From a candidate division WWE3 bacterium UBA1379 (GTDB taxonomy: Bacteria; Patescibacteriota; WWE3; UBA101185; UBA10185), in assembly GCA_002305475.1 (NCBI GenBank), contig DBRB01000001.1, positions 1-58,437 on the forward strand: DNA of 58,437 nt, given 5' to 3'. The notes under the pieces are model-generated. The model was not told the DNA's origin, ran no database searches, and saw nothing but the letters and a program-made list of their open reading frames with translations. A program made the translations under genes and the position numbers. Positions within the stretch are counted from its first letter, which is position 1. Each line of letters opens with the position of its first letter. Below are positions 4,684-42,959 of the stretch, piece after piece.

Positions 4684-4760
4684 AGAAAAAGCCCCGCTTC
4701 ACACAGAACTTTTATTGACCCTTATTCTACATGGTGGACTATCATGAACGATGTTGTTAA

Positions 4761-5300: not shown

Positions 5301-5342
5301 ATATTAATTATACACACTATCAACAGCGGACAAGAATCTACA

Positions 5343-5393
5343 TTTGGTGGGACATCTGGGAGGAAGTTGTGAACTATTTTATGTCCCTCCAAG
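5343..5393. repeat. 13-nt imperfect inverted repeat in a divergent intergenic region
   Basis: TTTGGTGGGACAT (5343-5355) versus ATGTCCCTCCAAG (5381-5393), 11/13 complementary, core GGGACAT/ATGTCCC perfect. GC-rich relative to its surroundings. Confidence 0.4.
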
Positions 5394-5431
5394 AGGCCTA
5401 CTACATCCCAAGTTTATCATATAATTAACTT

Positions 5432-6046
5432 ATGCTTATAAATTACCCGGTTGAGGATAGAACAATAAGCCAACATTTTGGCGTTGATAACACAAATGAC
5501 CCCGCTAAGGGGGATTTCTATACTGTATTTGGTAATAAACATCCTGGTGTGGACTTTCCCGTTCAGGAAGGCACCGAGGTTTTCGCTTCATTTCCGGGTA
5601 TTGTCGTAAGAAACGAGTACCACAAAGGGATGGGGAATGTCATAGGTATTAGGAATGGGAATATTGTGGCACTATATGCGCACTTGAGCGAAGCAACGAT
5701 TAAGGCTGGCCAAATAGTAAAAGACAGGGAATTGATTGGGCTATCTGGTGCGACAGGAGATGCCTGTTTAAGCCCGCACCTGCATTTTGAACTGAGAGAT
5801 ATTTCTAAACCGTCTCTAAAAGACATGGTATTTGAACCTATTTTTGGCAAAGAAATTCTGCAATACGCGGACACCTTTATTTATTCAGTAAACAACAAAA
5901 ATACCAAGAAAACATTAGTAAACCTTTCTAAACTGTACTATGGAACGGATTCATATTGGCAAAAGATTAACGAATCTAATGGTTTTGCATATGAAAAAGA
6001 TGAAATATTAAGCGATGGTCTTAGCGTTATTATCCCAAATTATTAG
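5432..6046 (+). CDS. M23 family metallopeptidase (LytM-type) with a LysM-like tail
   Basis: HPGVDF (HxxxD) and PHLHFE (HxH) motifs. The C-terminus resembles LysM (YGTDSYWQKINESNG). Confidence 0.7.
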   Translation: MLINYPVEDRTISQHFGVDNTNDPAKGDFYTVFGNKHPGVDFPVQEGTEVFASFPGIVVRNEYHKGMGNVIGIRNGNIVALYAHLSEATIKAGQIVKDRELIGLSGATGDACLSPHLHFELRDISKPSLKDMVFEPIFGKEILQYADTFIYSVNNKNTKKTLVNLSKLYYGTDSYWQKINESNGFAYEKDEILSDGLSVIIPNY

Positions 6047-6665
6047 CACTCAGCAGGTGATTAAAAAACTCGTAAGTAGGTTTGGAGTTATAAGCATATT
6101 CAAACTTTTCAAAAATACCCTCATCTTGATTAATACCCTTTATTGATTTGAGAAATTCGAGAAATTTATTCTTGCCGAAAGTATCCACCAGCAGCTTAAT
6201 AGCAAAGCCTGCCTCATTATAGTTTCTCTCATCTGTAAGGAATTTGGAAAACGCGTCCGGTACCTTGTATTTATCAAGCTGATCGGCAATAAACAAAGAT
6301 GTACCTTCAGTTAGCCAGTTTGGTTTTGTATGGTAGCAGATACTTCTGTAGAAACAATGACAGAGCTCATGCTTAATAAGTTTTTTAATATCATCTTCGT
6401 TATATTTATGCGTGCTCTCTTGTGCGATGTTGTCGGGGTTTAGGATTATTATTGCGTTTTTCGTCCAAGTCCAGCCTACGGACCAAGCAGGAGTTTCCTT
6501 TTCAAGAAATGAGTCGATAGTTTTTCGGTCATCCACAATGAAGATTTTTGGGGTGTCTTTTGCCCACTTAATATCAAAAAATTCGTTAAGATCTTGCATG
6601 GCCGTTTCATATGCCTCGTTTATTAATGTGTTTTCCTTGGAATGTATGCTGAAGGTTGGTATCAC
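6030..6665 (-). CDS. MA-clan (gluzincin-like) metallopeptidase-like protein
   Basis: HELCH (HExxH) followed 18 residues later by NWLTEG, the spacing seen in Peptidase_MA_2-type proteins. Overlaps the M23 gene end by 17 nt. Confidence 0.5.
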   Translation of the reverse strand: MIPTFSIHSKENTLINEAYETAMQDLNEFFDIKWAKDTPKIFIVDDRKTIDSFLEKETPAWSVGWTWTKNAIIILNPDNIAQESTHKYNEDDIKKLIKHELCHCFYRSICYHTKPNWLTEGTSLFIADQLDKYKVPDAFSKFLTDERNYNEAGFAIKLLVDTFGKNKFLEFLKSIKGINQDEGIFEKFEYAYNSKPTYEFFNHLLSANNLG

Positions 6666-6705
6666 GCAGTAATTATAAACTATTATGACTGAAAATGGAG
6701 GTGTG

Positions 6706-6745
6706 TTGATACTGAGCCATATTATAGGTATTTTGGTGATATAAT
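6706..6745 (+). promoter_or_regulatory. promoter candidates upstream of the small peptide gene
   Basis: TTGATA (6706-6711), 17 nt, TATTTT (6729-6734). An extended -10 TGaTATAAT lies at 6737-6745. Motif match only. Confidence 0.35.
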
Positions 6746-6808
6746 GTGTGCAGGATACAGCATGAGGATGATTCTGCTGTTGACAATCTACAGAAAGGAG
6801 AGTGCGTC

Positions 6809-6943
6809 ATGGCCGGTGAAAACATTCTTAAGGCCGAGATGGAAGCCATCCAAACCCAGACAGAAGCCGATGCCGCCTACAACGTCTACATTGACGATTA
6901 CGGCAATTATGGCAACTGGATGGACTGCAACGACTGGCATTAG
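6809..6943 (+). CDS. 44-aa candidate RiPP precursor peptide (MAGENILKAEMEAIQTQTEADAAYNVYIDDYGNYGNWMDCNDWH)
   Basis: ATG 6809 lies 8 nt after AAAGGAGAG. It is 113 nt upstream of, and on the same strand as, a radical SAM/SPASM gene. Helical acidic N-terminal part; aromatic, Asn/Asp-rich C-terminal part. Confidence 0.7.
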   Translation: MAGENILKAEMEAIQTQTEADAAYNVYIDDYGNYGNWMDCNDWH

Positions 6944-6971
6944 CCTGCTTGCCTGGCGACCATCGATAGAT

Positions 6972-7014
6972 AGAGGGAGGTAGGAAACCTTAAACAAGTA
7001 GCTTACCTTCCTCT
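6972..7014 (+). promoter_or_regulatory. intergenic stem-loop between peptide and maturase genes
   Basis: AGAGGGAGGTA (6972-6982) pairs with TACCTTCCTCT (7004-7014): 11 bp with one G-U that only pairs in a plus-strand RNA. 21-nt loop, no T-run after it. Confidence 0.5.
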
Positions 7015-7056
7015 GTCGTTCAACTCAAACGCTCAGAATCGGAAAAGGAGACAGAC

Positions 7057-7440
7057 ATGAAAGGCAAATTGGTCATCATGAAGCCTGTCTCAATCGCTTG
7101 CAACGGCAAGTGTGACTACTGCTACAATCTCTCCGTGAACTTCCGCACTCGTCGTGCAATTCCAAAGATGAGCGTGGAGACGGTAGAACGTGTAGAGCGT
7201 GGATTAATTGAGATAGGAATGGAACGCATACGACTGGTGTGGCACGGAGGTGAACCGCTCCTAAGAGGACTACCTTTCTATAAGGCAGTAATGGAGCAAC
7301 AGGCTCGGATTCGAGCTGAATACCCCGCCCTACGCCTGGAAAACGGTATGCAATCCAATCTAACCCGTCTCACGCCAGAGTGGTGCGAGTTTCTGAAGGC
7401 GAATCACATCATGGTCGGGAGCAGCCTCGATGGGTGGTAA
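7057..7440 (+). CDS. radical SAM enzyme, N-terminal part (AnSME-like core), ends at an in-frame TAA
   Basis: KPVSIACNGKCDYCY (CX3CX2C), GGEPLL, SSLDG motifs. GGAG lies upstream of ATG 7057. Same frame as 7483-8178. Confidence 0.75.
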   Translation: MKGKLVIMKPVSIACNGKCDYCYNLSVNFRTRRAIPKMSVETVERVERGLIEIGMERIRLVWHGGEPLLRGLPFYKAVMEQQARIRAEYPALRLENGMQSNLTRLTPEWCEFLKANHIMVGSSLDGW

Positions 7441-7482
7441 GAAGTACATGATGCCCACCGCAAATATCCCGACGGCACAGGT

Positions 7483-8178
7483 ATGTTCAACGACGCAATT
7501 CGTGGAATGGAACTGGCGAGTAAGTACGGCATCCTCGGCGGAATCATTGCTGTGGTAACCGACGTTACGGTCATGCAAGACCCCGCCAAGTTCTTCGACT
7601 ACCTGGTTAATGTATGTCCGAGAGCAGAAAATACGCCCTGCTGGGATGTGGGAAGCGATGGAGAAAAGCCCGCTTACACAGTAGAGAGCCAGGCGTTTCT
7701 CGACTTTACTACGGCAATGTTCGACCACTACTGGAAACTCGACGACCCGCAACGCAGGATGCGAATGTTTCACGGATTCATTCAGGGACTCCTGGGTGGC
7801 AAGGAACTTACTTGTTCATTCAAGGGAAACTGTGGTGACTTCCTGTCGGTGGAAGCTGACGGTAGCATCTATCCGTGTGGCAAGTTCTCTGGCGTACCTG
7901 AGTTCTATCTCGGCAATATCAATGAGCAGCCGTTGTCCGAGATTCTGGAAAATCCTGTGTACGAGGCATGGCTCAACCAGCGTTCCTGCATACCTCAGAA
8001 GTGTCAGGGTTGTAAGTTCGCCCAAGCCTGTAACAACGGTTGCACTTATGAGCGGTATCAAGGGAACGGTCAGTTCGCAGAGCTTTCTCCCTACTGCGAT
8101 GTGTGGTACGGTCTTTACGAGCATATCGGTGGTCGCATTACCGAACTTCAGACCGCACTCGAAGCACAGAAAGCCTAA
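7483..8178 (+). CDS. radical SAM enzyme, C-terminal part with SPASM domain (continuation of 7057-7440)
   Basis: CGDFLSVEADGSIYPCGKF and CQGCKFAQACNNGC (CX2CX5CX3C) SPASM signatures. In-frame codons 7441-7482 read EVHDAHRKYPDGTG, the expected DG-x4-HD-x2-R continuation. Confidence 0.75.
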   Translation: MFNDAIRGMELASKYGILGGIIAVVTDVTVMQDPAKFFDYLVNVCPRAENTPCWDVGSDGEKPAYTVESQAFLDFTTAMFDHYWKLDDPQRRMRMFHGFIQGLLGGKELTCSFKGNCGDFLSVEADGSIYPCGKFSGVPEFYLGNINEQPLSEILENPVYEAWLNQRSCIPQKCQGCKFAQACNNGCTYERYQGNGQFAELSPYCDVWYGLYEHIGGRITELQTALEAQKA

Positions 8179-8185
8179 GTTTGAA

Positions 8186-8234
8186 AGAGCCAGGTTTCAA
8201 AAACCTTGAGATCTGGCTCTAGTCTTTAATTTTT
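8186..8234 (+). terminator. terminator-like hairpin at the right edge of the GC-rich island
   Basis: AGAGCCAG (8186-8193) / CTGGCTCT (8213-8220) perfect 8 bp, 19-nt loop, followed by AGTCTTTAATTTTT. Confidence 0.45.
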
Positions 8235-8750
8235 ATGAAAAGAACACTTATCGAACCAACTAAATATATAAAAGAACTAATTAAACGTGAGAATGTAGGC
8301 AAAGGTGTAGTTGATATTTTAAAGTTCCAGAACAGTATTAAACTGGTGGATAAACACGAATTAATAAATAAACTTTTTAACCAGAGAACGGCGGAAGAAA
8401 TTTTAAAAGATGGTTTTGTAACCGGATGCACCGATGATGCCATTGTTTTTTTAGCACTCTTAAAGGCTCTAGGGGTAGAAGCTGTTTATGTTGAATCTCT
8501 CGAAAAAAGCTGGCTGGATGCACCTATGAATGAGCAGATGATTAGAGGACATGCATTTGTAAAAGTGGGAGAATTGTTAATCGACCCGCAACGTAAGGTA
8601 ATATACATAGATCCTAACTGGATAAAGAATCGTTACGTTATCTACGCAGAAGGAACCGAACCGTACGAATTTGGTTTAACAGGCTTCCGTGAGATGGTAC
8701 AAAAATTCATGGATTTCAAAGAATCTTACAAACAAAACAATAACAATTAA
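8235..8750 (+). CDS. transglutaminase-like cysteine peptidase superfamily protein
   Basis: Cys-His-Asp arrangement: GCTDDA ... RGHAFVKV ... LIDP, as in transglutaminase-core proteins. 171 aa. Confidence 0.5.
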   Translation: MKRTLIEPTKYIKELIKRENVGKGVVDILKFQNSIKLVDKHELINKLFNQRTAEEILKDGFVTGCTDDAIVFLALLKALGVEAVYVESLEKSWLDAPMNEQMIRGHAFVKVGELLIDPQRKVIYIDPNWIKNRYVIYAEGTEPYEFGLTGFREMVQKFMDFKESYKQNNNN

Positions 8751-8760
8751 TTATTTCCAG

Positions 8761-9051
8761 TTACATCAAGCCTAATTCACGCAGGAAACTTGGCAGAAAC
8801 ATATTTATAGCTGAAAGCGACATACCAATAATCGAAAGGTTTTTTAGTTTTGAAATCTGTTTAGTATCCAATATAAGTCTGTCTGATTTGGATAAAGCCA
8901 GTACGCAACCAGAATTTATCAATCCTAGCAATGGGCTTATCCAACTAACTAGGCATAAAAATGCCAACACGTTAGCAGTCCTAACGCTTTTTATATATTT
9001 TGAAAGAAATCCGCCTACCTTAATCCAGACGAAGAATAAAACCACTCTCAA
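8761..9051 (-). CDS. doubtful ORF (hydrophobic 96 aa, TTG start, no RBS)
   Basis: Only an alternative start codon, no Shine-Dalgarno, and a plus-strand hairpin plus T-run inside it. May be non-coding. Confidence 0.2.
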   Translation of the reverse strand: MRVVLFFVWIKVGGFLSKYIKSVRTANVLAFLCLVSWISPLLGLINSGCVLALSKSDRLILDTKQISKLKNLSIIGMSLSAINMFLPSFLRELGLM

Positions 9052-9129
9052 AGCAAGTTTGAGTGTTAGTAACTCATTTAGACTGATTAAATACTAAATT
9101 CCAAGTCCAACTAATACAGGAACAATTTT

Positions 9130-9282
9130 AAAAACTGTAGACTTTTTGTTTTCTTGCATGAATGCCTTTCCGGGTTGTCGAAATACAACAAGGGGCAACC
9201 CTCGTCTACAGCCGCTAAGCATTCAACCGCAGGGTTGCCCCTTGTTACGGTTGAATGCACCTTTCGGCTTTTAGCGGCTGTT
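9130..9282. other. GC-rich nested inverted-repeat element (candidate structured RNA switch or recombination site)
   Basis: Perfect helices: 9187-9202/9231-9246 (16 bp), 9208-9218/9271-9281 (11 bp), 9219-9229/9248-9258 (11 bp), 9135-9142/9204-9211 (8 bp). The first crosses the next two, so they are mutually exclusive. Confidence 0.55.
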
Positions 9283-9318
9283 AAATTATGAAATTATTAT
9301 ATCACCGGGGAAGGATAT

Positions 9319-9990
9319 TTAGTTAGATTTGGTGTTGTTAAGCAAAATCTTAACTTCCTTAACTTCGTTTACAACTGTTTTGTTTGATAGTTTTGATTTA
9401 ATAAATCTGGTGCTGTTTTGAACATACGTATTTTTATTATCCGGTGTATTGCTTATAGTTTCTTTTAGAAAAACTACTAGATCGTCGTATAACTTTTTCA
9501 AGTCAATGTAAATTATCAATGGATGCGGCAATTTAACACCACTAACAGATTTAACAGGCACGCCGTATTCTTCTATCTTGTGCGTGTTATGACCAAAGGT
9601 TAAATACCACGTGACTATTTGTAACCCAACCTCTATCTGAGCTGGTTCGTCCCCATGTATTAACGAGTGCCTATAGAGATGCATAAAGATGTTTGGAAAT
9701 GTGATGCCAAGTTTTGATAGTAACCAATCCCTTGAATTGATGCCTTTCTTTTTAGGCAATATTTGTGCAATGTGCTCGATTGTGGGAGTTAATAGCCGGA
9801 TCATGGCAAAATATCCGAACTGGTAATTATTAGCAGCAGCTAGTTGTAAATAGCTTCCGGTGTCTTTCTCCAGTCTTTGTAAAATACCATTCAATTCTTG
9901 TTTCAGGGACTTTTTGTACTTGTAATAAATGATGCCCCGATCCTTCGAACGTTGAAGTTTTCGGTTTTTATATTCCGGATGCCTTGCCAT
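9319..9990 (-). CDS. hypothetical protein with an Rx4H (HEPN-like) motif
   Basis: 223-aa ORF. LYRHSLIHG (R107-H112) fits the HEPN ribonuclease signature R-[NHD]-x3-H. Its start lies 2 nt after the stop of the upstream ATPase remnant. Confidence 0.45.
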   Translation of the reverse strand: MARHPEYKNRKLQRSKDRGIIYYKYKKSLKQELNGILQRLEKDTGSYLQLAAANNYQFGYFAMIRLLTPTIEHIAQILPKKKGINSRDWLLSKLGITFPNIFMHLYRHSLIHGDEPAQIEVGLQIVTWYLTFGHNTHKIEEYGVPVKSVSGVKLPHPLIIYIDLKKLYDDLVVFLKETISNTPDNKNTYVQNSTRFIKSKLSNKTVVNEVKEVKILLNNTKSN

Positions 9991-9992
9991 GG

Positions 9993-10470
9993 TTATTTTG
10001 CTTTCAGGCTGTATTTATATACTCTTTTGTTGAAAGCCTCTTCCCCGCCTTCAAGAATCTCACAAGCATGTTCTCTGATACCACATTTTTCTAAAACGCA
10101 ATCTACCTTAACTGTAGGCTTCGTGTTCTCTAATGATCCTGAACAATAGTCGAAAAGTTGTCCGTTTCTATTCTTTCGATCAGAATCGTGTCGGTTTGCC
10201 ACAATCAGTTGTTCTGCATCGGCGCCTACAACTAAATTGGCATTATGGCTAACCATTATTATTTGTCTTTCTTTTTTCTTTTCCTTTAAAAACGCGACAA
10301 TGCTTTCATAAATTGATCGACTATCCAAATCGTCTTCCGGCTGATCTATTAAAAGAGGCCATGTATCTGTCGATTCATCTCAGAAGTATTAAACCTTGAA
10401 ACTGAACGAGTCGGAATGGAAGAATGCTTTGTCTGTGCAGAAAACGGCGTGTTGAAAAATATCGTTCCTA
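9993..10470 (-). pseudogene. 5'-truncated, frameshifted ABC/SMC-type (RecF/OLD-like) ATPase remnant
   Basis: Only the C-terminal part survives: WPLLIDQPEDDLD (Walker B/D-loop), QIIMVSHNANLV (H-loop), ILEGGEEAF tail. A TGA lies just upstream in frame, and a signature-like FSAQTK is in another frame. It runs up to the tRNA-Phe 3' end. Confidence 0.6.
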
Positions 10471-10472
10471 CA

Positions 10473-10548
10473 TGGTGGAGCAGGTGGGAATCGAACCCAC
10501 ATAGCCGGTTTTTCAGACCGGTGCCGTGACCAACTTGGCTACCGCTCC
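10473..10548 (-). tRNA. tRNA-Phe (anticodon GAA), CCA encoded
   Basis: Reverse complement is GGAGCGGTAGCCAAGTTGGTCACGGCACCGGTCTGAAAAACCGG...GGTTCGATTCCCACCTGCTCCACCA. Anticodon loop CTGAAAA. Confidence 0.85.
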
Positions 10549-10747: not shown

Positions 10748-12451
10748 TTACCAGCTACCGCCTCCGCCACCCCCACCTCCTCCGCCGGAAAATCCTCCTC
10801 CGGATGACCCACTTCTGGTAGTGGATATGGAGGAACTGGCTGCCTGCGAAAAACTGTGAGATAAGGCACTAAATGATGAAAAGCTAAATGCCTGTCCACT
10901 TGAGCTTTCATACCATTCTGGTTGCTGGATCTTAATATCTGAAAATCTTTTTATCCAGACATCCTCTACACCGAATGCAGTAGCATAAGGTAAAAGCTTT
11001 TCAAAAAACATCTGATTCTGGGCCTGAAAGTCCAGTTTTTCATCCTGAGAAACCAGAAATTTTTTCAGAGATTTTGCTTCGCCATATTTTTCTATACCCA
11101 GCTGAGTTCTTTTTGCGGTTTGAGATGCCAGGTATGCTGCAATAATCATAAAGATATTCAGTGTAGGAAAAGCTAAACCGAACAGTACCATGAATAATGT
11201 ATGTGTTTTTTGAGGATTTTCTTTAAATAATCCCTTCATAATCAATCCTTGGGTAACTTTTTCCTGAAAAGTAAGTAAGGAAGTACCAAACGCCCTATTT
11301 TTTGAGAGTTCGTTGATACTAACTACATTGTTATTGCTTTTACTATGAATATTTATAAAAAGGTACTCCTCAAAGTTAGATAAGCCTTCCGCACTGTCTT
11401 TTAGAAAATGCAGTTCATAGTCATCTTTACCGAATATCCCTGATTTCGGTTTACTAACAATTTTCCAATACCCCTTTTGGGCCATCTGGATAATTGTTGC
11501 TGTAATATCCTTATGATCTACTGTTTTATCAAGTAATACCGATGTTTCAGCCGGAGACAAAAACTTATTATTCTTATCTTTAGGAGGATCAAACCAGGCA
11601 GCTACTACTCTGGCATTCTGGTTCTCTTTCCTATATGAGATATATCTGGCAATAAATATAATAGGAAGAACTAAATACCATGCAATTGCAGCTAAACCTA
11701 GAAAGATCCACAGTAATATTTGTCCGACTCCCGGTTTTTCCTCCTCCGGCATTAATATCGTCACATTTCCTTTTGGAAAACCTGTGGCGACAGTAAACCC
11801 TTCTCCGGGTCCCAATGGTTTAGTTAATGTGTAAGATACGGTTTTTGTTATCTGGTCATATCTGAACGTACAGGCAGTCTCCTGTGACCCGTAGGCACCC
11901 GTATAGCAGCTGTTTTGAATTTCATCTTCTGTAAAATTATTCGGAAGAATAACCTGAACACTCGATCTTTCTATGGGGATTTCCCAGTCAGTTCCAATAG
12001 CATCCCAGTATATTTCATCATATTCAGCGAAATATCCTAAAGCACCTGATACTTTATACTCTACGTGATAAGTAATATTCCCCGTAACGGTTTTGTTCGG
12101 ATCTCCTATTTTTAGGACAATATCACCATTCTCTTTGCTAACCCGATACTTTATGGATCTTCCTTGCGGATCTGTAACCGAATAATTGCTTAACTTCATG
12201 GCCAGGGTTTTACCGGCTTCATCGTTTAATCTATAGGGAATTTTTCTGAATATTCCATGCCTGTCATCCGGAAAGAAATATTCAATATCTTCCGACACAT
12301 TTATTGTTCCGTCGGTGTTAATCCTAATATCTACATTATATGAATTTATTTTTTCTATTGATGTGTCTAAAGCAAAAACACCGGATGTGTAAAAAATAAA
12401 TAATGGAATGGAAAGAATTACAGAATATAAGAATATTTTAAATGTTTTCAT
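10748..12451 (-). CDS. DUF2207-like membrane protein with a poly-Gly C-terminal tail
   Basis: 567 aa. Signal/anchor, large extracytoplasmic N-domain, several TM segments, and a terminal SGGGFSGGGGGGGGGGSW typical of DUF2207 proteins. Confidence 0.65.
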   Translation of the reverse strand: MKTFKIFLYSVILSIPLFIFYTSGVFALDTSIEKINSYNVDIRINTDGTINVSEDIEYFFPDDRHGIFRKIPYRLNDEAGKTLAMKLSNYSVTDPQGRSIKYRVSKENGDIVLKIGDPNKTVTGNITYHVEYKVSGALGYFAEYDEIYWDAIGTDWEIPIERSSVQVILPNNFTEDEIQNSCYTGAYGSQETACTFRYDQITKTVSYTLTKPLGPGEGFTVATGFPKGNVTILMPEEEKPGVGQILLWIFLGLAAIAWYLVLPIIFIARYISYRKENQNARVVAAWFDPPKDKNNKFLSPAETSVLLDKTVDHKDITATIIQMAQKGYWKIVSKPKSGIFGKDDYELHFLKDSAEGLSNFEEYLFINIHSKSNNNVVSINELSKNRAFGTSLLTFQEKVTQGLIMKGLFKENPQKTHTLFMVLFGLAFPTLNIFMIIAAYLASQTAKRTQLGIEKYGEAKSLKKFLVSQDEKLDFQAQNQMFFEKLLPYATAFGVEDVWIKRFSDIKIQQPEWYESSSGQAFSFSSFSALSHSFSQAASSSISTTRSGSSGGGFSGGGGGGGGGGSW

Positions 12452-12458
12452 TTTTGTA

Positions 12459-12545
12459 TGGTGGGCGAGACAGGACTTGAACCTGCACGGGTTTTACCCC
12501 ACAACGACCTCAACGTTGCGCGTATACCAATTCCGCCACTCGCCC
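12459..12545 (-). tRNA. tRNA-Leu (anticodon GAG), long variable arm, CCA encoded
   Basis: Reverse complement is GGGCGAGTGGCGGAATTGGTATACGCGCAACGTTGAGGTCGTTG + variable arm + GGTTCAAGTCCTGTCTCGCCCACCA. Confidence 0.9.
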
Positions 12546-12605
12546 AAAAAGTCTTTGCAGACAGTATTATACAATAAAAACACTCAAAGGTCAGTCACTG
12601 ATATA

Positions 12606-13550
12606 ATGATAGGTATGAGTCTAAAAGAACAGAATATTTCTCTGGATAACTACACATATCAATATTACAGCAGTACATACAGGGAAAACTTCCCAGTATT
12701 AATCATGCTTCATGGAATTGCCGCTAGTAAAGATTTTATGATGGAATTAGCCAACACTCTTAGTGAAACATATAATTGTTTTCTTCTTGATCTTCCAGGT
12801 CACAATGGTTTAGAACTAAACGGTATTGAAAAGTTTGATGATTTTGCCGAGTATTTAAAGAAATTTATCTCATACATCAACCCGAAGGAGTTTTGCATTT
12901 TAGGATATTCACTTGGCGGTATGATAGCCTTAAAGTATGCTGAAAACTATGCTGACATTGATATGCCAAAATTATCTAAGGTTGTAGTCTGGTCCAGTCC
13001 TGTATTGGGTTTTAATAACGGATTAAGTACCCTTGTTAAAGCATCCCTTCCAATAGTGAACAGCATTCCAAATGATTTATTTGATTCAGTGGCAAAAAAT
13101 AAAAAAATCATTGAATATCTTAATCAGGCACTTAAAATTGCAGGGACGTACGGTCCCGTTCCTGTTGAACCGTTATCTAAATTCAGTCTAGAAAATGCTA
13201 AAAGAATCATCAATATATCTACACTGGTAAACTTTGAAATAAACTTACATACCCCGGTTTTATATATCTTTGATAAATATGATCCGATCGTCCATCCAAA
13301 AAATTACCTGTATGTAAATAATAATCATAACCCTACAACCTCTAAAGTAGTACTAGTTAACCGTGGTGGACATTTTAAAAACAGAAATGGTTTTTCAAGG
13401 GTAAAAGAGGAAATTGGAAAGTTTTTAGAAACTAATAATAAGATATCTGGTGCCGAAGGTGGGACTCGAACCCACACTCCCTTACGGGAACTGCCTCCTG
13501 AAGACAGCGAGTCTGCCAATTCCTCCACTTCGGCTTACGCCCAGAAATAA
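12606..13550 (+). CDS. alpha/beta hydrolase fold protein
   Basis: GYSLGG nucleophile elbow; HG oxyanion region (IMLHGIA). Start set to ATG 12606, downstream of tRNA-Leu(GAG). The last ~34 codons run antisense through tRNA-Leu(CAG). Confidence 0.65.
   Translation: MIGMSLKEQNISLDNYTYQYYSSTYRENFPVLIMLHGIAASKDFMMELANTLSETYNCFLLDLPGHNGLELNGIEKFDDFAEYLKKFISYINPKEFCILGYSLGGMIALKYAENYADIDMPKLSKVVVWSSPVLGFNNGLSTLVKASLPIVNSIPNDLFDSVAKNKKIIEYLNQALKIAGTYGPVPVEPLSKFSLENAKRIINISTLVNFEINLHTPVLYIFDKYDPIVHPKNYLYVNNNHNPTTSKVVLVNRGGHFKNRNGFSRVKEEIGKFLETNNKISGAEGGTRTHTPLRELPPEDSESANSSTSAYAQK
13448..13534 (-). tRNA. tRNA-Leu (anticodon CAG), long variable arm, CCA encoded
   Basis: Reverse complement is GCCGAAGTGGAGGAATTGGCAGACTCGCTGTCTTCAGGAGGCAG + variable arm + GGTTCGAGTCCCACCTTCGGCACCA. 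Confidence 0.9.
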
Positions 13551-17058: not shown

Positions 17059-18240
17059 CTACTCGTATCGTAAAGCTTCTATCGGATCTTTTCTGCTTGC
17101 TTTCAACGCTGGATAAGTACCGAATAATACTCCAACTACCATTGAAAATCCTAAAGCTAGTATGATAGACCAGATTGGTATTTCTGCTCTGATGAAAGAT
17201 CTGGCGACAAATGAAGCCAGATAACCGAATAGTAAACCTATTATTCCCCCTCCGATACTTAGCAAAATCGCTTCAATCATGAACTGGAAAGCAATATTTT
17301 TGGAAGTTGCCCCCAAAGCTTTTCTAAGTCCTATTTCTCGGGTTCTTTCCGTAACAGAAACTAGCATGATATTCATAATTCCGATACCTCCAACCAGTAG
17401 TGATATACCTGCAATTGCACCTAAAAAGGAAGTTAATATTCCTAATATACTGTTTATTGTAGATAATATATCTTTCTGAGACATTACTGAGAAGTCATCC
17501 GGTTTTAAGTCTCTGAGCAGCGCAGATCTGATCTGTTTTGTTGCTGTATCAACATCCTGTGCATTACGAACCTTTATTGAAATAGATCCGTAGTTTTTAA
17601 TATCGAACGTATCGCTTAATGTGGTATAAGGTACAATTACCTGTTCATCGTATGCTCTCCCCTTCTCTTTGAATACCCCAATAACTTTATATGAATCATC
17701 ACCGATTTTTACTGTTTCTCCGATCGGTGATCTGTTTGGGAAAAGCTTTTTTACTACTTCAGGGCCTAATATTACTACCCTGGATTTGGTGGTTTCGTCC
17801 GTTTTTGTAAAGAAACTACCTTCTTTTACATCAAAGTTATACATATCTTTTCCAACATAACTTGACCCAATCACTCCTGCATTGAAAGTTTTTGTTTTGT
17901 ATCTGATTTTTTCTCCTATTTCTATATGCGGGGCTACATTTTCAACATATTCTGATGCGTAAGTATTTATCATATCTACATGTTTTTTCTCCAGCTTGTT
18001 TCTGGCAAAGTTTCTTGCCGGATCAGCAGTCATGTCCATTCTTCCTGGCATCACAAACAATAAGTTGGAACCTAAAGCGTCAAATTGTTCCGAAATATAA
18101 TTCTGCATACCTCTTCCTAAAGCAATTAATGATATGACAGCGAACACACCGATTACCACACCCAACATGGTCAAAAATGACCTTACTTTATTAAGTCCAA
18201 GTGATCTTATTGATGTTCTTAATGTTTCTGATACTCTCAT
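17059..18240 (-). CDS. MacB-type ABC transporter permease (FtsX domain)
   Basis: 393 aa. N-terminal TM, large extracytoplasmic domain, C-terminal FtsX-like TM bundle (RTREIGLRKALGA motif). Confidence 0.8.
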   Translation of the reverse strand: MRVSETLRTSIRSLGLNKVRSFLTMLGVVIGVFAVISLIALGRGMQNYISEQFDALGSNLLFVMPGRMDMTADPARNFARNKLEKKHVDMINTYASEYVENVAPHIEIGEKIRYKTKTFNAGVIGSSYVGKDMYNFDVKEGSFFTKTDETTKSRVVILGPEVVKKLFPNRSPIGETVKIGDDSYKVIGVFKEKGRAYDEQVIVPYTTLSDTFDIKNYGSISIKVRNAQDVDTATKQIRSALLRDLKPDDFSVMSQKDILSTINSILGILTSFLGAIAGISLLVGGIGIMNIMLVSVTERTREIGLRKALGATSKNIAFQFMIEAILLSIGGGIIGLLFGYLASFVARSFIRAEIPIWSIILALGFSMVVGVLFGTYPALKASRKDPIEALRYE

Positions 18241-18941
18241 TGGTTTATAATTTCCCCGTCTCGAAGAACAACCTTTCTCTGGGCAATTTCTGCCAAGTCA
18301 TCATCATGAGTAACTAATACTATAGTTTTTCCCTGGGTATTTAAATGCAGGAATAATTCCATAATTTCGGTTCCTGTCTTTGAATCAAGATTTCCTGTTG
18401 GTTCATCTGCCAGAATGATTGAAGGATTGTTGATTAATGCCCTGGCAATTGCTACTCTTTGTTTCTGACCGCCGGATAGTTCATTTGAACGGTTATATAA
18501 ACGATTACCTAAACCCACCATAGTCAGCATATCGATAGCTTTTTTATTCCAATCTGCTTTAGGAACATTACTGTACGTTAATGGCAGTATCACATTATCA
18601 AGAGCGGTTGTTCGTTGCAGTAAATTAAAAGCCTGAAAAATGAAGCCTATTTCACTGTTTCTGATATTTGCCAGTTGATTTTCTTTAAAATTCTTAGTTA
18701 AATGACCGTTCAATACAATCTCACCTTCACTTGGAGTATCTAAAAGACCGATCATATGCATAAGTGTTGATTTACCAGAACCCGATTTTCCCACAATTGC
18801 TACAAATTCCCCAGGATATACAGATAGAGAAGCATTTTTTACCGCCGTAATACGTGTGTCACCCATATCGTAATACTTGCAGATATTTCTTGCTTCTAGT
18901 ATCGGACTATTTTTTGATGAGGAATTCTTAGAAGTATACAT
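18237..18941 (-). CDS. ABC transporter ATP-binding protein (MacB/LolD type)
   Basis: GKSGSGKST Walker A, LSGGQKQRVAIARAL signature, ILADEPTGNLD Walker B. 4-nt overlap with the permease gene. Confidence 0.9.
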   Translation of the reverse strand: MYTSKNSSSKNSPILEARNICKYYDMGDTRITAVKNASLSVYPGEFVAIVGKSGSGKSTLMHMIGLLDTPSEGEIVLNGHLTKNFKENQLANIRNSEIGFIFQAFNLLQRTTALDNVILPLTYSNVPKADWNKKAIDMLTMVGLGNRLYNRSNELSGGQKQRVAIARALINNPSIILADEPTGNLDSKTGTEIMELFLHLNTQGKTIVLVTHDDDLAEIAQRKVVLRDGEIINQ

Positions 18942-18975
18942 GTGAATTTCTTAAATGTTTTGTATGAATAATTTA

Positions 18976-20037
18976 TTACTCTATTACCTGAACTTTGACA
19001 CCCTCTTCAAGCTCCTGGTTGTCGTTTAGCGGTGCAACTACTCTTTCATTACCGTTTATCTCGGATTTAATCTCTACGTACAGGTCACCTTCCAATCCTT
19101 TTTCAATATTTCTCTTAATAAGCAGTCCGGTTTCATTAACCACCCAAACGTAAGTATTTCCGGAATCATCTGAATAAACCTGATCATAATCCAGAGTCTT
19201 TACAGGAGTGTCGGTTGATTCAACGATAATATTTGCATCACCTTCCATGCCCAGCAACACGGGATGGCCCTCCCCGTTGATCAACTTCATTTCTACAGAG
19301 AAACTGTTTGTAGTATCAGCAAATAAAGGAATATTCTGAATAACGGCGGAAAAAATATTATTTGGATATGCATCCAGTACAACTTCTACATTCTGTCCAT
19401 TTTTAAGAAGACCGATATCTTCCTGATCTACTGTAACTTCGAAAACCAAATTATTAAGGTCAGCAATTTTCATAACAGGTGTGGCGGGGGATACTGTTTC
19501 TCCCGGGTTCATGTTAATATCAATTATTGTTCCGTTAAATGGAGCATTAATAAACAAATTATTAAGACCCGCTAAAGAAGCTTTGTAATTTGCTTCCGCC
19601 TGGCTGATCTGTTCATTAAGTGTTCTCAGTTTGATCTCGTATTCTCTTTCTCCACCTGCCAATGATTTATTATTTTCAAATTGTTCAATAAACAGTTCTT
19701 TATTTCTGATAGCAATATCCCTGGCATCTTTTAATGCTTGAGTAGAGTGAGATATACTAGATGAGTCAAGTCTGGCTAAAGTCTTACCTTTTGGTACTTC
19801 CTCACCTTCTGATACTGAAATGCTTAATATCGTACCGGCAGCAGAAAAAGATAAGCTTGCTTCATTTTTGGATGTTACTCTTCCTGATGCGGATACAGTC
19901 TTTGTGACAACTTCCTGCTTAAAGGGAGCTTCTCTGACTACAACAGTACCCCCACGGTTTTTTACTGCGTTGTAACCGATTATCCCTATGGTAAGAATAA
20001 TAATTATTAAAATAATTATCTTAATATACTTCTTCAT
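18976..20037 (-). CDS. HlyD/MacA-family periplasmic adaptor (membrane fusion) protein
   Basis: TM anchor, coiled-coil region, barrel-sandwich/beta-barrel regions. Start set to ATG 20035-20037 (MKKYIKII...) to avoid overlapping dgkA. Confidence 0.75.
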   Translation of the reverse strand: MKKYIKIIILIIIILTIGIIGYNAVKNRGGTVVVREAPFKQEVVTKTVSASGRVTSKNEASLSFSAAGTILSISVSEGEEVPKGKTLARLDSSSISHSTQALKDARDIAIRNKELFIEQFENNKSLAGGEREYEIKLRTLNEQISQAEANYKASLAGLNNLFINAPFNGTIIDINMNPGETVSPATPVMKIADLNNLVFEVTVDQEDIGLLKNGQNVEVVLDAYPNNIFSAVIQNIPLFADTTNSFSVEMKLINGEGHPVLLGMEGDANIIVESTDTPVKTLDYDQVYSDDSGNTYVWVVNETGLLIKRNIEKGLEGDLYVEIKSEINGNERVVAPLNDNQELEEGVKVQVIE

Positions 20038-20082
20038 ACACCAAATATGGATTCTACACCTATTAAATAGTATTATACAACT

Positions 20083-20457
20083 ATGTTTAAATTGTTTGCT
20101 TCCCATCATCCGTTCAGACAAGCTAAAAGTTTTAAATATGCATTTAAAGGGATATTTCATGCCTTATTAAATGAACCAAACTTTCGTGCACAAATCGTTA
20201 TAGTCTTTTTCTCAATAACAATGGGTATTCATTTTCAGATAACTAATACAGAATGGGGTATGCTAATAATATCCATGGGTATGCTCCTTGGGGCAGAAAT
20301 GACCAATACAGTAGTTGAGGAGCTTATTGATCACTTGATTAAGGAATACCATGAGGGTGCAAAAATAATTAAAGATCTGGCTGCTGGTTTTGTATTAACT
20401 GCAGCATTTACAGCTCTGGCAATACTAGTATTAATCTTTGGGCATAGAGTATTATAG
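20083..20457 (+). CDS. dgkA: diacylglycerol/undecaprenol kinase (DgkA family)
   Basis: 124 aa, three TM segments, FKYAFKGI ... GAEMTNTVVEELID motifs. Confidence 0.8.
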   Translation: MFKLFASHHPFRQAKSFKYAFKGIFHALLNEPNFRAQIVIVFFSITMGIHFQITNTEWGMLIISMGMLLGAEMTNTVVEELIDHLIKEYHEGAKIIKDLAAGFVLTAAFTALAILVLIFGHRVL

Positions 20458-41825: not shown

Positions 41826-42959
41826 ATGAAGAAATTATTCGCTTTATTATTTGTCATAATAGTTGCAGTTTTAATATTAGCTGTATATAACTTTGCTTAT
41901 CTTTCTGATATTTCCCGTATGGATTTAACTTCCGAATCAACATCCATAACAGGCATATTTAATAATATAAATAACATTGATCAAAAATTAAATGATTCCG
42001 TCATACCAAAACAGATACCTACCGGAAAAACACTTAAAAATAATTACCACATATATCAAACTTTTAATAACTGCGGTCCTGCTGCCTTATCTATGGCTTT
42101 ATCATATTATAGGATCAAAGAAAGCCAACAGATATTAGGACAGCAGTTGCGACCTTATCAGCATCCTAAAGGAGATAATGATGATAAGTCAGTAACACTT
42201 GATGAATTAGCTGATAAATCAAGGGAGTACGGGTTGATACCATACCATCGCCCAAACGGAAATATAGAAATAATTAAAAAGTTTATTGCAAACGATATCC
42301 CCGTCATAACAAGAACCTGGCTTAAAGAAAATGATGATATCGGACACTACAGAATAGTAAAGGGATATGATGATGAAAAAAAGATTCTCATTCAGGACGA
42401 CTCACTGCAAGGTAAAAATCTCAAATATGGATATGATCAATTTAATACTTTATGGGTAAAATACGGCTATGAATATCTTGTTCTGATACCGCCTGAAAAA
42501 GACTATATCATTATAGATATTTTGGGCGAAGACTTCGATGAAAATAAAGCATGGAATAATGCCGTGAAATACTCCAAAGAAAGACTCAACAAAAACCCGA
42601 ATGATACATATGAGCGATTTAATCTTTCGGTAGCTTTATATCAGATCGGCGATTACAGACAATCTGTTGAACAATTTGAAAAGGTTAAGGGTAATCTGTC
42701 AAAAAGAACATTGTGGTATCAGATTGAACCCATCATGGCTTATTACAAACTTGGTGAATACAATAATGCATTTGATATCATAGATGACATTTTAAACAAT
42801 AATAATCGGGCATTTTCTGAATTGTATCTGATCCGGGGACAAATATATCTGAAACAAGGTGATAAAGAAGCAGCTTTAAGAGAATTTGAGAAAGCAATTC
42901 AATACAATGAAAACCTAAAAGCGGCACAGGAGGCCATGCTACTTGTAAAAAATCATTAG
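41826..42959 (+). CDS. C39-like cysteine peptidase domain protein with C-terminal TPR repeats
   Basis: NCGPAALSMALSYY (catalytic Cys context) ... GHYRIV (His). TPR-like repeats at the C-terminus. Confidence 0.6.
   Translation: MKKLFALLFVIIVAVLILAVYNFAYLSDISRMDLTSESTSITGIFNNINNIDQKLNDSVIPKQIPTGKTLKNNYHIYQTFNNCGPAALSMALSYYRIKESQQILGQQLRPYQHPKGDNDDKSVTLDELADKSREYGLIPYHRPNGNIEIIKKFIANDIPVITRTWLKENDDIGHYRIVKGYDDEKKILIQDDSLQGKNLKYGYDQFNTLWVKYGYEYLVLIPPEKDYIIIDILGEDFDENKAWNNAVKYSKERLNKNPNDTYERFNLSVALYQIGDYRQSVEQFEKVKGNLSKRTLWYQIEPIMAYYKLGEYNNAFDIIDDILNNNNRAFSELYLIRGQIYLKQGDKEAALREFEKAIQYNENLKAAQEAMLLVKNH

Follow-up and report, generated by a model that had tools for sequence, protein, structure and literature searches.

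Triceptides are formed by radical S-adenosylmethionine (SAM)/SPASM enzymes that act on aromatic-X-X motifs and join a carbon of the aromatic ring to the β-carbon of the third residue (PMC11499958). YxdB connects Tyr-C3 to Asp-Cβ, OscB connects Trp-C7 to Asn/Asp-Cβ, and XncB connects Trp-C6 to Arg/Asn-Cβ (PMC11002830). ChlB (PDB 9gm3), another triceptide synthase, acts on YDR motifs (PMC11499958). Here we describe a locus with comparable features in a stretch of 58,437 nucleotides from the candidate division WWE3 bacterium UBA1379 (contig DBRB01000001.1 of assembly GCA_002305475.1, forward strand), which we refer to in its full length as the window. An initial annotation, made from the sequence alone, had described the small open reading frame (ORF) at positions 6809–6943 as a precursor-like peptide with a periodic aromatic/Cys core. 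This ORF, the radical SAM/SPASM maturase gene downstream of it, and a third gene for a Cys-His-Asp protein of about 170 residues probably constitute a three-gene cassette for a peptide that is made on the ribosome and modified after translation (RiPP), with a proposed cyclophane-forming pathway.

The precursor peptide and its family

The ORF at 6809–6943 on the plus strand codes for 44 residues, MAGENILKAEMEAIQTQTEADAAYNVYIDDYGNYGNWMDCNDWH, followed by a TAG stop codon; re-translation reproduced the initially annotated peptide exactly. An AAGGAG Shine–Dalgarno sequence (6795–6800, plus strand) lies 8 nt before the ATG, and all related loci have an equivalent, GAAAGGAG(G), 5′ of their precursor ORFs. 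When the repaired maturase sequence was searched against 5.8 billion proteins, it returned a discrete clade of about 20 clusters (P0004–P0023) with 43–99% identity, after which identity drops to 32%. We compared the upstream DNA of 11 lineages of this clade. All 11 contain a homologous ORF of 42–59 residues on the same strand, 77–126 nt 5′ of the maturase gene. The initial annotation had proposed exactly this association as a check, along with conservation of the ORF at the protein level. The second check also came out in favor of a real gene: across the 25 gap-free codons, the proportion of synonymous differences (pS) is 0.55–1.0, which is saturated, and the proportion of nonsynonymous differences (pN) is 0.06–0.39. 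The precursor ORF is under purifying selection and is a genuine coding gene whose function is linked to the enzyme.

With a profile of the three closest peptides, an exhaustive HMMER scan across 1.84 billion representative proteins identified only eight clusters, all of the same design, and contributed four further full-length variants. The ORF is short, has no match in Pfam or NCBIfam, and is overlapped by ORFs in other frames, all of which might be expected if it had arisen by chance in untranslated sequence 5′ of the radical SAM coding region. This explanation is refuted by the in-frame conservation in 11 lineages with saturated synonymous and low nonsynonymous change, by the strong Shine–Dalgarno sequence in every locus, and by the eight independent protein clusters. 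We are confident that the ORF encodes the genuine precursor of the adjacent enzyme.

Consensus and substitution pattern were derived from 13 close precursors. They share a recognition-like leader motif, M-x-G-x-x-[IL]-L-x-[AS]-E-[LMI]-E-x-[IV], a linker of 9–15 residues, and the core consensus Y-x-V-Y-[VIA]-[DN]-[DE]-(Y-x-N or E-L)-[YH]-G-[DN]-[WF]-x-[DN]-C-x-x-[WY]-[HS], which is followed by the stop codon. The boundary between leader and core would fall near residue 23/24, because the linker of variable length separates the conserved N-terminal motif from the first core Tyr. Based on this family alignment, the window peptide would consist of a leader of residues 1–23 (MAGENILKAEMEAIQTQTEADAA, 6809–6877, plus strand) and a core of residues 24–44 (YNVYIDDYGNYGNWMDCNDWH), which together with the TAG codon spans 6878–6943 on the plus strand. 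The initial description of the leader as helical could not be established: AlphaFold renders the peptide as a single long helix at low confidence (predicted local distance difference test (pLDDT) of 57), and this model is uninformative.

The residues Tyr, Trp, and Cys occupy positions 24, 27, 31, 34, 37, 40, and 43 of the window peptide, as initially annotated. Their spacing is 3-4-3-3-3-3, so that the claimed period of three residues applies to every step except that from 27 to 31, where YIDD adds a fourth residue. The candidate ring motifs in the core are YID (27–29), YGN (31–33), YGN (34–36), and WMD (37–39). Three triplets, Y-x-[DN], [YH]-G-[DN], and [WF]-x-[DN], are present in each of the 13 close precursors. 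The aromatic sites accept only other aromatic residues (Tyr to His in P0112, Trp to Phe in P0109), and exchange at the third site is limited to Asp and Asn. The tandem YGN-YGN that had been singled out does exist in the window, but its first unit is an optional fourth triplet; L166, L168, and P0114 contain E-L or E-V-L instead. With four distant precursors included, each peptide carries three to six aromatic-x-[DN] triplets. This substitution pattern, together with the YxD and WxN/D motifs of known triceptides, strengthens the original reading of the core as a series of aromatic-X-[Asn/Asp] units. The core also contains a single Cys (Cys40) that is invariant among the close precursors; P0114 has a second Cys, located in the leader. 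Every close precursor ends with [WY]-[HS] and has no follower sequence.

The distant maturases (L175 and L176 at 43–46% identity, L085–L088 and L004 at 31–34%, and L125 at 28%) do not reach any curated family cutoff. The distant precursors have a related G-x-K-I-L leader and cores of YGD, YSD, or YND repeats. They contain one Cys (exactly one in those with YGD repeats), which is located at the opposite end of the core. ORFs of small size whose leader is of the G-x-K-I-L type were seen 5′ of unclassified radical SAM genes of the sulfatase-maturase/DynA-like type in L085–L088, L125, L004, L098, L099, and L106 (28–34% identity to the clade). The cores of these ORFs combine YGD/YSD repeats with one Cys (...AGYSCHTESPYSDGYGDAGYGDYSDA) or, alternatively, contain Y-x-R repeats (...YERYGRGYERYERGYVRYEKSW). 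These loci suggest that further precursor families of this kind exist and are still undescribed.

The motif strings of the precursor core appeared in no paper that we found, and our literature search returned nothing on radical-SAM peptides in candidate phyla. With no Pfam or NCBIfam match either, the initial statement that no named precursor family fits this peptide stands. The precursor family is undescribed and small, and it is carried by low-GC, candidate-phyla-type bacteria with small genomes.

The maturase, its partner, and the proposed chemistry

The maturase gene (7057–8178, plus strand) is preceded by its own AAGGAG Shine–Dalgarno sequence (7045–7050, plus strand). In the window it is a pseudogene; joined across the interruption described below, it codes for 373 residues. 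Both Pfam domains, Radical_SAM and SPASM, score above threshold. The protein contains a CX3CX2C motif at residues 15–22 and a full seven-Cys SPASM domain at residues 253–347. Six SPASM/auxiliary-cluster cysteines are invariant across the clade, and the CX3CX2C cysteines are found in every member that covers the N-terminus.

Among NCBIfam models, 65 match the maturase at E ≤ 0.01, and the curated cutoff is reached only for the generic SPASM domain model. The best match is the anaerobic sulfatase maturase TIGR03942 with 231 bits (cutoff 349), and the second-best named enzyme model is DynA with 189 (450). Lower scores were obtained with NF010308 (174; cutoff 484), NF010321 (173; 441), TIGR04083 (157; 300), DarW (144; 650), FxsB (131; 370), YhhB (128; 445), GrrM/OscB (125; 310), DarE (124; 650), PapB (108; 340), AmcB (105; 425), QhpD (81; 453), XyeB (80; 450), and SCIFF (ScfB; 71; 425). 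When PDB sequences are scored with the clade profile, the Clostridium sulfatase maturase 4k36 reaches 251 bits, ChlB 123, and CteB 87. Alignments to models that lack a RiPP recognition element (sulfatase maturase, DynA, FxsB, YhhB, GrrM, XyeB) start at profile positions 2–13 and protein positions 7–13. In extension-bearing models (QhpD, HxsB, CefB, ScfB-related, CcpM), the alignments start near profile position 90–100. Therefore, the maturase comes without an N-terminal recognition domain. Cyclophane and daropeptide models (DynA, DarW, FxsB, YhhB, GrrM; 125–189 bits) outscore the thioether models (PapB, QhpD, SCIFF; 71–108 bits), which suggests that the maturase resembles triceptide and daropeptide synthases more than thioether-forming enzymes. 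When genomes and metagenomes were scanned with the clade profile, mostly relatives of about 30% identity were returned, with clade members only in L003, L083, and L084. Carriage by phages found no support, as IMG/VR viral contigs contained no clade member (best matches of 26–29% identity over most of the protein length).

The high rank of the sulfatase maturases raises the question as to whether this enzyme could function as one. Anaerobic sulfatase maturases act on a Cys or Ser residue, and by analogy the enzyme might oxidize Cys40 to formylglycine, the aldehyde of which would be able to react further. The full-length match to TIGR03942 and the match to 4k36 agree with this idea. On the other hand, the TIGR03942 score stays below the curated cutoff. 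Asp277 of the Clostridium perfringens enzyme, which follows an auxiliary-cluster Cys and was reportedly proposed as the catalytic base by Goldman et al. in 2013, corresponds to a Gly that is invariant in the clade (C-D-F versus C-G-K-F). The sulfatase motif C-x-[PA]-x-R is absent from the precursor peptide, and none of the 35 ORFs of the 58-kb window scanned against Pfam contains a Sulfatase domain. Formation of formylglycine would also leave the conserved aromatic-x-[DN] triplets unexplained. We regard it as most improbable, and a true sulfatase maturase is ruled out by the combination of score, Asp277-to-Gly exchange, missing sulfatase, and missing motif. The enzyme clade falls between sulfatase maturases and known cyclophane/daropeptide synthases, a range that automatic annotation can mislabel; several of the more distant search matches are already named "anaerobic sulfatase-maturation protein".

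The invariant Cys invites a second alternative, which the initial annotation had also considered. The main modification could be a thioether between Cys40 and a carbon of a neighboring Asp or Asn, as in QhpD or the ranthipeptides. The Tyr and Trp residues would then serve structure or recognition, and a thioether might equally accompany cyclophanes. Thioether formation is known from SPASM enzymes with two auxiliary clusters, such as QhpD, PapB, and CteB, and CteB is detectable among the PDB relatives. The Cys is flanked by Asp/Asn in the close precursors, and the distant YGD-repeat precursors likewise have exactly one. The enzyme itself lends this precedent no support: among the matches listed, the PapB, QhpD, and SCIFF models score low, and the N-terminal extension of about 90–100 residues that characterizes QhpD/ScfB-type enzymes is absent. 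Furthermore, one Cys cannot account for three or four strictly kept aromatic-x-[DN] triplets with aromatic-only and Asp/Asn-only substitutions, and in the distant relatives the Cys sits at the opposite end of the core. A thioether as the main modification is therefore an unlikely, though not far-fetched, alternative.

The third gene (8235–8750, plus strand) codes for 171 residues with the invariant pattern G-C-x-D ... G-H ... D-P and is annotated here as a putative transglutaminase-fold cysteine peptidase. A protein of 156–187 residues follows the maturase directly in all seven distinct genomic contexts, and the alignment of these proteins shows an invariant Cys, His, and Asp within the three motifs. 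Pfam Transglut_core weakly matches three of the seven homologues (best E = 7.8e-6). The window protein matches DUF553 and Transglut_core at E of about 0.04–0.06 (14.2 bits, cutoff 23). Around CTD...GH, pseudomurein endoisopeptidase is weakly similar to the family profile, and all matches to PDB sequences have E > 1. An AlphaFold model of low confidence (pLDDT 58.6; predicted template modeling score 0.60) places Cys65 at the N-terminus of a helix that begins at residue 64 and places His106 and Asp117 on strands. The alignment and this model thus both present the ordered Cys-His-Asp triad expected of a transglutaminase-like peptidase. Foldseek returned nothing at E ≤ 0.001 for the model. Its weak top matches are LapG, the Cytophaga cysteine protease 3isr, arylamine N-acetyltransferases, and vasohibin, all of which have a Cys-His-Asp transglutaminase/papain-like fold. 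Judging from alignment and model, the third protein is probably a cysteine peptidase and a candidate leader peptidase, and this is the weakest part of the overall model.

A peptidase-like partner in every cassette could also mean that the peptide is a sacrificial scaffold. A small cofactor or quinone-like molecule of the pyrroloquinoline quinone, mycofactocin, or cysteine tryptophylquinone type would be made from the C-terminal D-C-x-x-[WY]-H, and the third protein would cut it out. Among radical SAM/SPASM enzymes, PqqE and MftC act on a Tyr near the C-terminus of their peptides. The window peptide and its homologues always end at [WY]-[HS] without a follower, and neither the window nor the loci of its relatives have a transporter in the cassette. 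This proposal conflicts with the rarity of the cassette (eight representative clusters) and with its patchy, repeatedly lost distribution, which is unlike that of an essential cofactor pathway. In addition, the PqqE and MftC models are not among the best 25 of the 65 NCBIfam matches, and the most conserved part of the peptide reaches well upstream of the C-terminus. We consider such a role improbable.

We propose instead that the peptide is converted to a triceptide-type product. The maturase would bind the conserved leader motif and use a 5′-deoxyadenosyl radical to take the β-hydrogen from the third-position Asp or Asn of the aromatic-X-[D/N] triplets. That β-carbon would then be bonded to the aromatic ring that lies two residues upstream. 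Repetition along the core would afford three or four contiguous three-residue cyclophanes: Y27-D29, optionally Y31-N33, Y34-N36, and W37-D39. Cys40 and the C-terminal W-H probably participate in a further step, possibly thioether formation, and the third protein would remove the leader. Cyclophane-type chemistry is suggested because the conservation pattern of the motif is what such chemistry would select for, and because the maturase shares the radical SAM + SPASM architecture, free of a recognition element, of triceptide and daropeptide synthases. Judged by motif and homology, we rate this chemistry as even or slightly better than even.

Several observations weigh against this proposal. The maturase reaches the cutoff of no named NCBIfam enzyme family, and this includes all named cyclophane-forming families; its best matches are instead the sulfatase maturase models of NCBIfam and PDB. 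The first core triplet, Y-x-V, has no Asp or Asn. Neither the invariant single Cys nor the C-terminal [WY]-H is explained by cyclophane formation. The type of bond is not legible in a sequence, and the chemistry is one that we infer. As for the third protein, its assignment as a peptidase is based on sub-threshold matches and a low-confidence model, the base composition of its gene differs from that of the precursor–maturase pair, and in Brennerbacteria the gene survives alone beside a maturase relic, so that it may have an independent role.

There is also a more far-reaching reading. One sulfatase-maturase-like enzyme would install two kinds of links on a 21-residue core, namely three to four back-to-back Tyr/Trp-Asp/Asn cyclophanes and a further bond that connects the invariant Cys with either the C-terminal Trp/Tyr-His or an Asp. 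The products would form a densely polycyclic class restricted to ultra-small candidate-phyla bacteria. The GC-rich precursor–maturase pair would be swapped horizontally into a fixed slot before a resident peptidase-like gene and would be repeatedly inactivated. If this were true, the product might be a dispensable weapon or signal in an episymbiotic lifestyle. We deem this reading speculative and rather unlikely.

Inactivation, layout, and possible mobility of the cassette

The initial annotation had called for a repaired maturase, and the lesion is indeed a single in-frame stop. The ORFs 7057–7440 and 7483–8178 are in the same frame and are split by one TAA (7438–7440, plus strand) at codon 128, which is CAA (Gln) in intact alleles. 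The 15 residues lost between the two ORFs (128–142) include the invariant H131, R135, G140, and G142. Two Joint Genome Institute (JGI) metagenome contigs (L001 and L002) are 99.7% identical to window positions 5345–10502, have the same gene context, and carry an intact 373-residue allele (P0004) with CAA at codon 128. The window maturase gene differs from this allele by five changes: two synonymous substitutions, Q128*, S185N, and I192N. Residue 192 is Ile, Val, or Leu in 17 of the 19 clade members and Tyr and Phe in the other two. The precursor ORF shows no difference over its 135 nt. Since TAA serves as an ordinary stop codon elsewhere in the cassette, the window maturase is a recent pseudogene that arose by a CAA-to-TAA nonsense mutation; the precursor gene is intact, and the pathway is dead. 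An alternative genetic code or read-through of TAA was rejected as the default explanation: TAA normally ends both the maturase and the third gene, the nearly identical allele has CAA, and four invariant positions lie within the lost segment. A sequencing or assembly error in the window is less likely, given that the stop is accompanied by I192N at a site that is otherwise almost always aliphatic, and that a different TAA is present in three independent samples of a sister lineage.

In this sister lineage (L183–L185), which is syntenic with the window at 84% DNA identity, the maturase gene (L183:5811–6941) is interrupted in frame by an independent TAA, at codon 197 (PCW*TG); 16 of the 19 clade members have Glu at this position, and the remaining ones Asp or Gly. 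Because only three residues are missing between the pieces, a two-piece enzyme is conceivable in these organisms. Another decayed locus is found in Candidatus Brennerbacteria (L177:3649–4000; also L178–L182). Here, a 350-nt gap 5′ of the third-gene homologue still encodes the last approximately 75 residues of the maturase, reading ...CNNGCTYERYLGNGTF...LQAALAQQ*; the remainder of the enzyme and the whole precursor have been lost, and the third gene is kept. This remnant is a deletion relic. The window, the sister lineage, and Brennerbacteria represent three independent inactivations of the cassette.

The three-gene order was found in seven different genomic contexts. Every locus begins with a strong Shine–Dalgarno sequence and the precursor gene, followed by a hairpin, a second Shine–Dalgarno sequence, and the maturase gene. 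The hairpin of the window is a 16-bp stem-loop at 6969–7017 (plus strand; −36.4 kcal/mol, z = −2.7). Hairpins of 11–16 bp stand at the same position of the spacer in all nine loci examined, with unrelated sequences and, in some, a subsequent T-run. The window structure is likely to act as an attenuator or as a transcript-stabilizing element that would set the ratio of precursor to enzyme. A sequence TGaTATAAT at 6737–6745 (plus strand), about 64 nt 5′ of the precursor start codon, reads as a possible extended −10 promoter element. A consensus promoter scan yielded only a weaker TTGATA-17-TATTTT at 6706–6734; promoters of such bacteria are uncharacterized.

The precursor ORF and the maturase gene lie in a GC island (approximately 6700–8200) of 50–53% GC with surroundings of 30–39%. 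GC content at third codon positions is 0.47–0.79 in the precursor and maturase genes versus 0.23–0.40 in the third gene and the flanks. This contrast exists in six of seven loci (the window, L163, L166, L168, L171, and L172) and is evened out only in L173. A sharp composition boundary therefore runs through the conserved three-gene arrangement. In the window, this boundary coincides with a terminator-like 15-bp stem-loop (8186–8220, plus strand) between the maturase stop codon and the third gene. Between the window and L183, the maturase has a pS of 0.75 and 74% amino acid identity; its neighbors have a pS of 0.2–0.5 and 87–92% identity. Because the maturase is much more diverged than the adjoining genes, the comparison suggests that it was exchanged horizontally, or by allelic replacement, on its own within the conserved slot.

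Other observations concern the surroundings of the cassette. The motif TCTACAT(T)GGTGG(G)A, of about 13–15 nt, occurs three times in the window (4727–4740, 5337–5352, and 10467–10548). Its last copy forms the 3′ end of tRNA-Phe(gaa). L001, L002, and L183 have the block 5345–10502 (or –10380) in common with the window; in all three, it begins precisely at the middle copy, and the left flanks are of three different kinds. L001 matches only the 3′ approximately 30 nt of tRNA-Phe and then diverges. This arrangement looks like small att-bounded islands stacked at tRNA-Phe, with the peptide cassette on a 5.1-kb island without an integrase. In the WWE3 bacterium RBG_16_37_10 (L172:1–1664), a large serine recombinase gene lies directly 5′ of the cassette; the precursor ORF of this locus contains a run of Ns (assembly gap) and is missing from the gene calls. 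Directly 5′ of the window cassette, an M23 peptidoglycan peptidase gene (5432–6046) and a convergent HExxH (Peptidase_MA-like) gene (6030–6665) overlap by 17 nt. This pair accompanies the cassette in L001, L002, and L183 and not in other lineages. Farther away, the window contains a C39-like peptidase fused to TPR repeats (41826–42959, at a distance of about 35 kb) and, at about 10 kb, a MacB/FtsX permease with an HlyD-type adaptor (17059–20160). They are possible processing and export functions, and they are unlinked to the cassette in other genomes.

Three further features of the window were recorded. A GC-rich, strongly structured intergenic element at 9155–9285, downstream of the minus-strand ORF 9319–9990, has inverted repeats that are nested or alternative to one another; one pair of 16 nt is perfect (9187–9202/9231–9246). 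Its minus strand folds with −61 kcal/mol (z = −6.6), and no Rfam family matches it at the gathering threshold. A mechanical ORF of 380 residues at 12408–13550 spans two minus-strand tRNA-Leu genes at its ends (12459–12545 and 13448–13534); only approximately 12600–13440 of it is a real α/β-hydrolase gene. The DUF2207 membrane protein encoded at 10748–12451 has a C-terminal run of ten glycines (GGGFSGGGGGGGGGGSW).

Comparison with known systems

Within this survey, we found no report of a characterized peptide natural product from candidate-phyla (Patescibacteria-type) bacteria. A minimal, conserved radical-SAM peptide cassette of two or three genes is a tractable entry to these under-explored hosts with small genomes. 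The family provides a new leader–enzyme pair, a contiguous Tyr/His/Trp/Phe-x-Asp/Asn core, about a dozen natural variants, and the intact allele P0004. With the variants and this allele, the chemistry is directly testable in E. coli. The three inactivations and the composition boundary amount to a small natural experiment on how reduced genomes acquire and lose secondary metabolism. Cyclophane rings as such are no longer surprising; the system is a rewarding target, and one that is easy to test, by virtue of its hosts, its Cys and W-H, its partner protein, and its repeated decay.

The closest parallels are the YxD (YxdB) and WxN/WxD (OscB, XncB) triceptides and the "3-CyFE" enzymes that make them. 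These systems share with the window cassette contiguous repeated aromatic-X-X triplets with Asp or Asn in third position, a radical SAM enzyme that has a full SPASM domain and lacks an N-terminal recognition domain, and a compact cassette with the precursor directly upstream. The likeness to YxdB refers to the described motif. In contrast to these examples, the window maturase falls below every curated 3-CyFE model (XyeB, GrrM/OscB, FxsB, YhhB, AmcB), and its family has a new leader motif, an invariant single Cys, a fixed [WY]-H C-terminus, a Cys-His-Asp partner protein, and candidate-phyla-type hosts. ChlB, the second-best solved relative, aligns over the whole length and also acts on Tyr-x-x motifs; its sequence is only distantly related, and its third residue is Arg rather than Asp or Asn.

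The best-scoring relative, the anaerobic sulfatase-maturating enzyme (TIGR03942; PDB 4k36–4k39), has the same length, architecture, and auxiliary-cluster Cys ligands. The clade instead has a dedicated small precursor, the invariant Gly in place of Asp277, and a score below the cutoff. DynA, DarE, and DarW are likewise peptide-crosslinking SPASM enzymes that act on aromatic residues in the short C-terminal core of a small precursor, but the scores are far below their cutoffs and the window core lacks the aromatic-X-aromatic motif of daropeptides. QhpD and the ranthipeptide enzymes (PapB, SCIFF) resemble the window system in having a SPASM enzyme and a Cys next to Asp/Asn in the core. The window system differs by its single Cys in a core that is not Cys-rich, by the absence of an N-terminal extension, and by its low model scores; as for QhpD, no quinohemoprotein amine dehydrogenase context was seen around the window cassette. 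Judged by sequence comparison, the cassette would work like a triceptide system, and yet by curated tests its maturase is a member of no named family.

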